Shown one piece after another: positions 24,430-49,711 of a DNA stretch of 64,000 nt (position 1 is its first letter; each line of letters opens with the position of its first letter). Location: NCBI RefSeq assembly GCF_050920415.1, contig NZ_CP169309.1. The stretch is one strand, 5' to 3'. Under the pieces are notes generated by a model that was given only the letters and a program-made list of their open reading frames with translations, did not search any database and had not been told where the DNA came from. The DNA comes from Escherichia coli. Its GTDB lineage: Bacteria > Pseudomonadota > Gammaproteobacteria > Enterobacterales > Enterobacteriaceae. The position numbers were made by a program, and so were the translations under genes.

Positions 24430-25689
<1,260 letters not shown>

Positions 25690-25703
25690 TCGTCCGAGAG
25701 CTG

Positions 25704-25725
25704 GCAGCCCCGTTCGCGGGGCTAC
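25704..25725. terminator. GC-rich hairpin between convergent murA and sfsB; putative shared terminator
   Basis: agccccg-ttcg-cggggct stem-loop 15 nt after the murA stop; no clear U-tract. Confidence 0.4.
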
Positions 25726-25736
25726 CGCCAGACCAC

Positions 25737-26015
25737 TCATTTTTTCGGTTTAGTGTAGCTACGCATCAACTGCGTTCTGTCGATAAACTCATGGGTCTGC
25801 GGATCATGGTAGCGTGATGGCCAGATAACCCAGGGGTCAGTTCCCAGTGCTTTCGCAATAATCATCTCTCCTTTCGGCCATGGGCGCGATAATGCGTTCG
25901 CCAGCGTTGAGGAACTCAAACCATTTCTACGAGATTCCGCCGCCATTGACGTTCCTTTCTTGCGTAAACCCGCAATGATGTCAGCGGGATGCCAGTCAAT
26001 GAAATTACTTTCCAT
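25737..26015 (-). CDS. sfsB: Ner-like DNA-binding protein SfsB (Nlp)
   Basis: 92-aa ORF with helix-turn-helix; recognised as Nlp/SfsB. Confidence 0.93.
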   Translation of the reverse strand: MESNFIDWHPADIIAGLRKKGTSMAAESRRNGLSSSTLANALSRPWPKGEMIIAKALGTDPWVIWPSRYHDPQTHEFIDRTQLMRSYTKPKK

Positions 26016-26207
26016 CTTTCCTCACTCCTTAAGTTAGTCGCTTTCATTCAGAACACTTCTTCTGTCGAGCATCACTATACTCCTGATGGCCTATTGCTCT
26101 AAAAAGTTCCTGTAAAGAGTGTGAATATTCAGAATATATAAAGATACATACACTGGTTTTTCAGGCGTTATTACGCTGAATAAGTGTTTTTATGGAACTT
26201 ATTGGAA

Positions 26208-26230
26208 TCATCCCGCGCACTGCGCGGGAT
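26208..26230. repeat. Perfect 11-bp inverted repeat with 1-nt spacer, 14 nt downstream of the ispB stop
   Basis: catcccgcgca-c-tgcgcgggatg; no adjacent U-tract on the ispB transcript. Confidence 0.6.
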
Positions 26231-26243
26231 GAGGGGGAGGGGA

Positions 26244-27215
26244 TTAACGATCGCGTTGAACAGCGATGTGCGCGAGGCCGATGAGTGCTTCTCGCCACGG
26301 GGTGTCCGGGAGCACCTGTAACGCTGCGATGGCTTTGTCTGCTTCTTCCTCGGCACGCTGACGCGTCCATTCAAGAGAGCCACAAGCGTTCATTGCTTCC
26401 AAAACCGGTTCCAGAAGATGACGACCGTTACCCTGTTCGATGGCGGTACGGATCATCTGCGCCTGTTCAGGTGTGCCATGATGCATCGCATGCAGCAGCG
26501 GCAGCGTTGGTTTACCTTCGTTCAGATCGTCGCCGACGTTTTTACCCAACTGTTCGCCATCGGCATTGTAATCGAGCAAATCGTCGATCAACTGGAAAGC
26601 GGTGCCGAGATAACGCCCATAATCTTGCAGGCCTTTCTCCTCCTCCGGCGAACAACCTGCCAGAATCCCGGAACACTGCGCGGCAGCCTCAAACAGACGC
26701 GCGGTCTTGCTGTAGATAACGCGCATGTAGTTTTCTTCGGTGATGTCCGGGTCGTTAACGTTCATCAGTTGCAGAACTTCACCTTCTGCGATGACGTTTA
26801 CGGCTTCAGACATCACTTCCAGCACTTTGAGCGAACCGAGGCTGGTCATCATCTGGAACGCGCGGGTATAAATAAAATCGCCTACCAGCACACTGGCAGC
26901 ATTGCCAAACGCAGCGTTGGCGGTAGCTTTACCCCTGCGCATATCTGATTCATCCACTACGTCGTCGTGTAGCAGAGTCGCCGTGTGGATAAATTCGATC
27001 AGGGCTGCAATGGTGACATGCGCATTTCCCTCATAGCCAACAGCTCGTGCAGCCAGTACAGCAATCATCGGACGAATACGTTTACCGCCGCCGCTGACGA
27101 TGTAATAGCCTAACTGATTGATCAGTTGGACGTCGGAATTAAGCTGCTCGAGAATTGCCGCATTAACACCCGCCATATCTTGCGCGGTTAACTCATTGAT
27201 TTTTTCTAAATTCAT
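26244..27215 (-). CDS. ispB: Octaprenyl diphosphate synthase
   Basis: 323-aa ORF with two Asp-rich motifs (LLHDDVVDESD and FQLIDDLLD). Confidence 0.96.
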   Translation of the reverse strand: MNLEKINELTAQDMAGVNAAILEQLNSDVQLINQLGYYIVSGGGKRIRPMIAVLAARAVGYEGNAHVTIAALIEFIHTATLLHDDVVDESDMRRGKATANAAFGNAASVLVGDFIYTRAFQMMTSLGSLKVLEVMSEAVNVIAEGEVLQLMNVNDPDITEENYMRVIYSKTARLFEAAAQCSGILAGCSPEEEKGLQDYGRYLGTAFQLIDDLLDYNADGEQLGKNVGDDLNEGKPTLPLLHAMHHGTPEQAQMIRTAIEQGNGRHLLEPVLEAMNACGSLEWTRQRAEEEADKAIAALQVLPDTPWREALIGLAHIAVQRDR

Positions 27216-49581: not shown

Positions 49582-49653
49582 GCGGGATAAGGCGTTTACG
49601 CCGCATCCGGCATGGATTGCCTGATGCGACGCTGGCGCGTCTTATCAGGCTAC
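49582..49653. repeat. Pair of REP (BIME-like) palindromic units in the infB-rbfA spacer
   Basis: gcgggataaggcgtttacgccgcatccggca and gcctgatgcgacgctggcgcgtcttatcaggc match the REP consensus. Confidence 0.7.
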
Positions 49654-49686
49654 GTGAACAGCCCTTCTAACTGAAATTAATTTTAA

Positions 49687-49711
49687 AAAGGGGCTAACAG
49701 CCCCTTTTTTG
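49687..49711 (+). terminator. Terminator-like hairpin immediately upstream of the rbfA ribosome-binding site
   Basis: aaaaaggggct-aac-agcccctttttt. Confidence 0.6.

Follow-up and report, generated by a model that had tools for sequence, protein, structure and literature searches.

Organization of the ispB locus

The palindrome described here lies in the 228-bp spacer between ispB and sfsB (nlp) within the window, that is, the whole stretch of 64,000 nucleotides of Escherichia coli DNA that was analysed. The genes are arranged in the order murA (+ strand, 24430-25689), sfsB (-), ispB (-) and rplU (+) and, since ispB is encoded on the minus strand, the region downstream of ispB corresponds to lower coordinates (Table 1). 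The two hexamers of the sfsB promoter, TTTAGA and TATAGT, were described in the ispB-sfsB spacer as those of a constitutive RpoD promoter (PMC3946193). Strain EC42405 has an identical spacer (100%), and 5,425 of 5,426 complete E. coli genomes contain the spacer as a single copy. Its sequence (26016-26243) is unusually polymorphic within the species: an identity to the window of at least 99% is found in 49 of 5,425 genomes and one of 90-95% in 4,559, and the differences between the window and K-12 are clustered about 60-95 nt past the hairpin, in a patch at about 26140-26175. The IspB protein is 100% identical to IspB of the E. albertii type strain.

Other sequence elements are found in the same region. 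A further hairpin, GCCCCGTTCGCGGGGC, at 25701-25728, lies between the convergent murA and sfsB genes and serves both of them, with published 3' ends on either strand (murA at K-12 ~3335191-3335196 (-), sfsB at 3335229 (+)). The G-rich tract at 26234-26241 (+), beside the palindrome, fits the FtsK-orienting KOPS consensus GGGNAGGG; it is one of four matches in the window, all on the + strand (24742, 26234, 31194 and 42907), their total count is at chance level, and the match beside the palindrome is not conserved in Citrobacter. Two other candidates were discarded, namely an antisense ORF at 26184-26321 (+, 45 aa), which overlaps the ispB 3' end and the palindrome and is not a conserved gene, its frame being shifted in K-12 by a 1-nt indel in the G-tract, and a 7-bp inverted repeat (AAGTTCC/GGAACTT) between the post-stem tail and the sfsB -35 region, which is about what chance provides in a spacer of 230 bp.

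Table 1. Features of the ispB-sfsB region, in window coordinates.
Feature	Coordinates	Strand	Basis
ispB (octaprenyl diphosphate synthase) CDS; stop codon TAA at 26246-26244	26244..27215	-	ORF list; RefSeq annotation of EC42405 and K-12
Pyrimidine-only spacer UCCCCUCCCCC, from stop codon to hairpin	26233..26243	-	Sequence
Palindrome, 3'-terminal stem-loop of the ispB mRNA	26208..26232	-	Folding, K-12 3' ends, conservation and covariation
Window equivalent of the K-12 ispB 3'-terminus peak (3334715-3334728)	26196..26209	-	Window/K-12 alignment, by homology
Conserved 20-nt tail UUCCAAUAAGUUCCAUAAAAAC directly past the stem, with two UUCC repeats 11 nt apart	26186..26207	-	Alignment
C-rich, G-poor tract of 80 nt, candidate rut/Rho-loading region	26128..26207	-	Composition
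sfsB sigma-70 promoter, TTTAGA-18-TATAGT	26074..26103	-	Promoter scan
sfsB (nlp), next gene downstream, same strand as ispB	25737..26015	-	ORF list, annotation

The palindrome and its fold in the RNA

The preliminary description of this DNA reported a perfect 23-bp palindrome, CATCCCGCGCA-C-TGCGCGGGATG, at 26208-26230 and 14 nt after the ispB stop codon. The 23-mer occurs letter for letter in the window, shifted by one position (26209-26231), and its 11-bp arms with a 1-nt spacer are exact; the arms do not end there, however, and with the pair T26208/A26232 they reach 12 bp, which gives a palindrome of 25 bp. Counted from the stop codon, 12 nt precede the 23-bp form and 11 nt the 25-bp form. 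A palindrome of this size is well beyond chance expectation: perfect inverted repeats of 11 bp or more whose loop does not exceed 5 nt are found at three loci in the 64-kb window, as compared to a mean of 0.05 in simulated windows (n = 100, first-order Markov). The other two are hairpins flanked by an A-run and a T-run, similar to bidirectional intrinsic terminators.

In the ispB transcript the elements follow each other as UAA-UCCCCUCCCCC-(UCAUCCCGCGC AGU GCGCGGGAUGA)-UUCCAAUAAGUUCCAUAAAAAC. Since a loop of 1 nt is impossible in RNA, the effective fold is a stem of 11 bp closed by a 3-nt AGU loop. This GC-rich stem-loop, located after the gene as in an intrinsic terminator, has a predicted energy of -20.3 kcal/mol, and the region has a predicted z-score of -5.5.

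The palindrome has a single match in the window, even with up to 3 mismatches allowed. A 35-nt query is present in 5,421 of 5,426 E. coli genomes, at a median of two places per genome; these two places most probably represent the two strands of one palindrome, i.e., one locus per genome, because genomes in which the palindrome is imperfect give one place. In the genome-wide search that had been proposed as a check, the motif thus has one copy in the window and one in each of about 5,400 E. coli genomes, and is not dispersed.

Conservation and covariation of the hairpin

Conservation was followed in 80 orthologous ispB loci from species of Enterobacterales, collected in one scan with IspB. In 78 of them ispB is followed by a homologue of sfsB in the same orientation, and in the remaining two the sequence ends early. 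Conservation had been suggested as a further check, and it extends beyond the family: a hairpin is found 1-53 nt after the ispB stop codon in all 80 loci, at a median distance of 9 nt and within 26 nt in 75 of them. The median hairpin energy is -16.8 kcal/mol, and the best 40-nt windows average -17.6 kcal/mol vs -7.9 in shuffled sequences. In the Yersiniaceae, Pectobacteriaceae, Morganellaceae and Budviciaceae, sfsB is located 580-1650 nt after ispB, vs about 220 nt elsewhere, which points to the insertion of extra sequence or of a gene; also in these four families the hairpin adjoins the ispB stop codon.

The 80 loci carry 80 distinct hairpin sequences, in which pairing is preserved by means of compensatory changes. 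Escherichia, for instance, has CATCCCGCGC, Citrobacter has CATCCCGTGC/GCACGGGATG, Enterobacter has TCTCCCTGCG, and Buttiauxella and Cedecea have TTTAGCGCGCC. Covariation was counted on an alignment of 25 sequences, with the window stem given as the structure: 84.8% of the cells are paired, and changes on both sides are found at 7 of the 11 pairs. The covariation score, uncorrected for relatedness, is 0.320 vs 0.185 in shuffled alignments (none of 500 reaches 0.320), controls in which the structure was slid give at most 0.147, and the picture is the same with 35 sequences. One of the stem pairs offers a textbook compensatory path, being C-G in E. coli, U·G in C. youngae and U-A in C. werkmanii. 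RNAalifold returned no consensus structure for 33 sequences, as the stems of Cedecea and Buttiauxella are misregistered by MAFFT, and for 25 sequences it recovered the 5 outer pairs only, after which the pairs were counted on the given structure.

Variation is seen also within the species. The K-12 hairpin, CAUCCCGCGC-AGC-GCGCGGGAUG, has a stem of 10 bp, which an outer U·G pair lengthens to 11 bp, and is mismatched at the position that closes the loop; in other E. coli strains a U·G pair results from the replacement of A by G in the 3' arm, or the changes lie immediately beyond the stem. The exact dyad with its 1-nt spacer is therefore a strain variant, and the stem is the conserved part.

The mismatches indicate which molecule is under selection. 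With a stem finder that scores G·T and A·C mismatches equally, the internal mismatches of the transition type on the ispB-sense strand amount to 16 G·T and 1 A·C (binomial p=2.7e-4, uncorrected for shared ancestry). As G·U is tolerated only in RNA, and here on the ispB-sense strand, this count argues against a DNA operator, a cruciform or an antisense RNA, and it is therefore the ispB RNA that is under selection, and neither the DNA nor an antisense transcript. The energies of the sense and antisense hairpins do not differ significantly (p=0.16); taken as a whole, the 80-nt region has the better fold in the antisense direction.

Mapped 3' ends of the ispB transcript

The preliminary description had proposed the mapping of ispB 3' ends as a check, and its reading would have been refuted by a common dispersed repeat or by transcripts that run on without a 3' end. 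Neither applies, the motif being no dispersed repeat and published maps of K-12 placing the end of ispB transcripts at the hairpin. In the TRS tables (Bar et al., 2023; PMC10687069), a "Primary" 3' terminus is assigned to ispB in three data sets. In the re-analysed Term-seq data of Dar and Sorek it covers K-12 + 3334715-3334724, with the dominant end at 3334718, a signal of 0.88 and adjusted p-values of 1e-27 to 4e-34; in the RNAtag-seq data of Barsheshet it covers 3334715-3334728 (dominant 3334720, signal 0.77), and in the LB data of the TRS authors, also obtained by RNAtag-seq, 3334716-3334727 (dominant 3334721, signal 0.82) (PMC10687069). The two RNAtag-seq data sets are independent of each other. 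The fold predicted in the same tables at the ispB terminus is the same hairpin, with -20.2 kcal/mol and a longest U run of 2 (PMC10687069). In our alignment the K-12 stem ends at 3334715, which places the ispB termini 3-6 nt past the stem. The three dominant ends (3334718, 3334720 and 3334721) correspond by alignment to window positions 26206, 26204 and 26203, and the mature ispB RNA of the window strain would therefore end in ...GGGAUGGUUCCA (26203-26206); all the 3'-end data are from K-12-type strains (K-12/BW25113), from which the hairpin of the window strain differs at 2 positions.

The read density over the sfsB CDS is 5-8 times lower than over ispB (0.06-0.11 vs 0.47-0.53; TRS tables, PMC10687069), which indicates that most transcription stops short of sfsB. 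The Term-seq table of Adams 2021, which covers the strongest ends only, lists no ispB end, there is no ispB entry in the TERMITe supplements, and text searches of the literature returned nothing relevant that links sfsB to Rho or ispB to Hfq/ProQ. The distance from the stem to the 3' end was considered as a discriminator between mechanisms and abandoned, since in the TRS tables the rpmA terminator, which has a U-tract, shows a distance similar to these 3-6 nt.

The list of transcription start sites of Thomason et al. (quoted in TRS Supplementary Data 4) contains a 5' end at K-12 3334698 (+), approximately at window position 26226, within the 5' arm of the hairpin, and the density of read starts in the 41-nt ispB 3' UTR is about 4 times that in the CDS (TRS tables). 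The 5' end within the arm looks like a stable decay fragment of the hairpin and not like a promoter.

Sequence following the hairpin

As already recognized in the preliminary description, a U-tract is lacking. A terminator scan finds nothing at the site, where the tail of the ispB transcript reads AUUCCAAUAAGUUCC, with 2-3 U among the 8 nt that follow the stem, as compared to the 5 or more T in 8 that the scan requires. There is no T-run beyond the palindrome on either strand and no A-tract before the stem, where the spacer is UCCCCUCCCCC. A terminator score of the d'Aubenton-Carafa type was poorly calibrated, giving negative values also for known terminators of the window, and was not used. 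T-runs of at least 4 are found at the stem end in 11 of the 80 loci (e.g., in Hafnia, Edwardsiella, Photorhabdus, some Yersinia, Erwinia and Pantoea).

The RNA on both sides of the hairpin is rich in C and poor in G. Upstream, the stop-to-hairpin spacers of 35 Enterobacteriaceae loci contain, taken together, 150 C, 109 T, 41 A and 25 G. Downstream, the first 60 nt past the hairpin contain 13 C vs 7 G in the window and, over the 80 loci, the first 80 nt contain on average 22.0 C vs 10.9 G, with C exceeding G in 76 loci (35/35 Enterobacteriaceae and 41/45 others). The bias fades in the following 80 nt (16.0 C vs 15.6 G), and a control region upstream of ispB, read on the same strand, has 18.5 vs 15.3.

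Directly past the stem, 20 nt (alignment columns 63-82) are 54-91% conserved among 35 sequences from at least 12 genera, as highly as the stem itself, vs 30-45% further downstream; the UU at +2/+3 belongs to the conserved positions. The forms in which this tail is written are TTCCARTAAGTTCC..., YTCCARTAARTTCC...AAA and TTCCAATAAGTTCCATAAAAAC (window 26207-26186, - strand). No second copy of the motif is found in the window, and genera without the exact motif nonetheless have UUCC/YC-rich tails. The lambda tR1 Rho-dependent terminator is built as rutA, boxB hairpin and rutB. By analogy with it, the simplest reading of the tail is that it may provide YC contacts for Rho, the hairpin being placed between two C-rich segments. 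Otherwise, the tail may have been selected as a non-canonical U-tract, it may act as DNA in the regulation of sfsB, or its ...CCA end may resist exonucleases.

A stronger proposal, which we consider rather doubtful, is that the C-rich spacer, the hairpin and the 20-nt tail (YUCCARUAARUUCC...AAA) constitute one sequence-specific termination module shared by at least 12 genera. The module might be a compact Rho-loading site, in which YC dinucleotides spaced by 11 nt would serve as primary-site contacts, or else the ...UUCCA-3' end of the mature ispB mRNA might itself be a selected determinant of exonuclease resistance. If the module were real, it would stand out among Rho-dependent terminators, which rarely have a recognizable conserved motif.

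Mechanism of 3' end formation

The palindrome encodes an RNA hairpin at the 3' end of the ispB mRNA, a transcript end of an ordinary type. Among the roles listed in the preliminary description, that of an RNA stability hairpin agrees with the 3' ends mapped at the hairpin and with the covariation in the ispB sense. In their study of such ends, Dar and Sorek (2018) reported that nearly all Rho-dependent transcripts of E. coli end at stable stem-loops without a U-tract or an upstream A-tract, that these transcripts are extended in pnp and rnb mutants, being trimmed by PNPase/RNase II, and that a sequence with C>G, taken as the rut site, lies immediately downstream of the ends (PMC6061677). The ispB element has each of the sequence features of this class and for this reason we favour, with a probability of about 0.55, a mechanism in which the transcript is released by Rho and then trimmed back to the hairpin by exonucleases, where both the role of Rho and the trimming are deduced from the behaviour of the class and from composition. 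The alternative of a Rho-dependent termination element, also raised in the preliminary description, is thus consistent with the conserved C>G tract and with the 3' end at the hairpin, and the dependence on Rho itself is carried over from the class.

According to this mechanism, the ispB mRNA has its last structured element in the transcribed palindrome, whose 11-bp GC-rich stem-loop would define and protect the 3' end. In view of the missing U-tract, RNA polymerase would pass the hairpin and continue. Rho would then load on the C-rich, G-poor RNA on either side, namely UCCCCUCCCCC upstream and the UUCC repeats with about 80 nt of C>G sequence downstream, and would release the transcript within roughly 100 nt before the sfsB promoter. 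Finally, the 3'-5' exonucleases PNPase and RNase II would trim the tail to the base of the stem and stall there. The expected outcome is a stable ispB message, with sfsB insulated from it and using its own promoter.

The main competitor, less probable and nonetheless a serious possibility, is a weak or non-canonical intrinsic (Rho-independent) terminator, in which the hairpin and a short U-containing tail (A/G-UUCCA) would destabilize the elongation complex, perhaps with the help of NusA/NusG, so that the mapped ends would be true or lightly nibbled release sites. The stability of the stem (-20.3 kcal/mol) is of the grade of canonical terminators, the 3' ends are about as distant from it as those of rpmA, a terminator with a U-tract, and the conservation across genera of the UU at +2/+3 and of the next 20 nt would be odd for a decayed U-tract. 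Moreover, the T-runs at 11 of the 80 loci suggest that a canonical terminator is the ancestral or an alternative state, and mixed or transitional terminators were themselves proposed by Dar and Sorek (2018; PMC6061677). Against intrinsic termination stand the mere 2-3 U in the 8 nt after the stem, below the rule of the terminator scan, the lack of an upstream A-tract, and the conserved downstream C>G tract, which has no role in such a mechanism. Release by Rho and weak intrinsic termination are compatible with each other.

Other roles of the palindrome

The remaining explanations place the function of the palindrome elsewhere than in the ispB RNA. The preliminary description had offered a protein-binding site as one option, and the perfect dyad of the window strain, its position between ispB and sfsB, about 105 bp upstream of the sfsB -35, and the fact that sfsB encodes a DNA-binding protein could all suit an operator bound at the DNA level by a dimeric protein, e.g., a regulator of sfsB or SfsB itself. 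This option is abandoned as very improbable, since the half-site is not conserved between Escherichia (CATCCCGCGC), Enterobacter (TCTCCCTGCG) and Buttiauxella/Cedecea (TTTAGCGCGCC) and the complementarity is, the excess of G·T over A·C mismatches (16 vs 1) is not what a double-stranded DNA site would favour, the central position of the dyad varies even inside E. coli, and an RNA 3' end maps at the palindrome.

Still less credible is a role on the + strand, where the palindrome would serve an antisense transcript of ispB as terminator or processing hairpin. In that direction the fold of the hairpin is equally good, and the surrounding 80 nt, as stated above, fold even better; however, the sequence that comes next is GGGGGAGGGG, without a T-run, murA, the sole upstream gene on the + strand, has its own terminator with mapped ends at 25701-25728, and the G·U pairs become A·C mismatches in the antisense RNA.

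Membership in a dispersed family of extragenic repeats (REP/BIME-like or other), which might be suggested by an extragenic GC-rich palindrome whose GGGATG/GGATG superficially resembles the REP core, can be practically dismissed in view of the single match in the window, the single locus per E. coli genome, and the lack of a REP-core or Rfam match. In agreement with the preliminary description, which had set the palindrome apart from REP sequences, the REP-core pattern GCCKGATGCGRCG (up to 2 mismatches) matches genuine REP sequences at 49599-49650 and misses 26208-26232. The cluster at 49599-49650 comprises three matches with 0 mismatches, or four when one with 2 mismatches is included, and is followed by a perfect hairpin, A5-GGGGC...GCCCC-T5, at 49685-49709, which resembles a bidirectional terminator. 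Rfam scans of the ispB-sfsB region gave nothing above the gathering threshold, which is at 46-67, the best scores being 13.9-20.4 bits (E-values between 0.66 and about 10); a full-length match to STnc560 (Rfam) across the intergenic region, at 13.9 bits, disappeared once the search range was changed and was rejected.

Significance and comparison with known systems

Both the ispB terminus and its fold are present in published tables and the class of the element is well described. Being the 3' hairpin of ispB, the palindrome is not worth pursuing as an operator or a repeat and has little meaning beyond annotation. As a single locus, it illustrates the general evolutionary point made by Dar and Sorek, the stem-loop being always kept and covarying, and the U-tract coming and going (T-runs in 11/80 loci); this turnover of the U-tract agrees with transitions between intrinsic and Rho-assisted termination. 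The tail with the UUCC repeats could be a handy natural substrate for studying Rho recognition beside a protective hairpin.

Among known systems, the closest is the class of Dar and Sorek (PMC6061677), with which the ispB element shares a GC-rich stem-loop just before a precise steady-state 3' end, the lack of a U-tract and an A-tract, C>G sequence downstream, and a position after a moderately or lowly expressed gene. It differs from the class in the 20-nt post-stem sequence conserved across genera, which has not been described for its members, and in that Rho dependence and trimming by PNPase/RNase II are putative at ispB. Canonical intrinsic terminators have a stem-loop of the same size and energy, directly after the stop codon, and T-runs are found at some of the orthologous loci, but the U-rich tract of 7-8 nt and the upstream A-tract are missing in Escherichia and in most Enterobacteriaceae. 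REP elements acting as 3' stabilizers are likewise extragenic GC-rich palindromes able to block 3'-5' exonucleases at the end of an mRNA; the ispB palindrome, in contrast, is single-copy, departs from the REP consensus, and diverges in sequence among genera at a constant locus. As for lambda tR1, it is an analogy only, in that a hairpin is placed between C-rich, G-poor single-stranded segments which might jointly form a loading site for Rho; the two share no sequence similarity, the ispB tracts are short (11 nt upstream), and no N/Nus function is implied.
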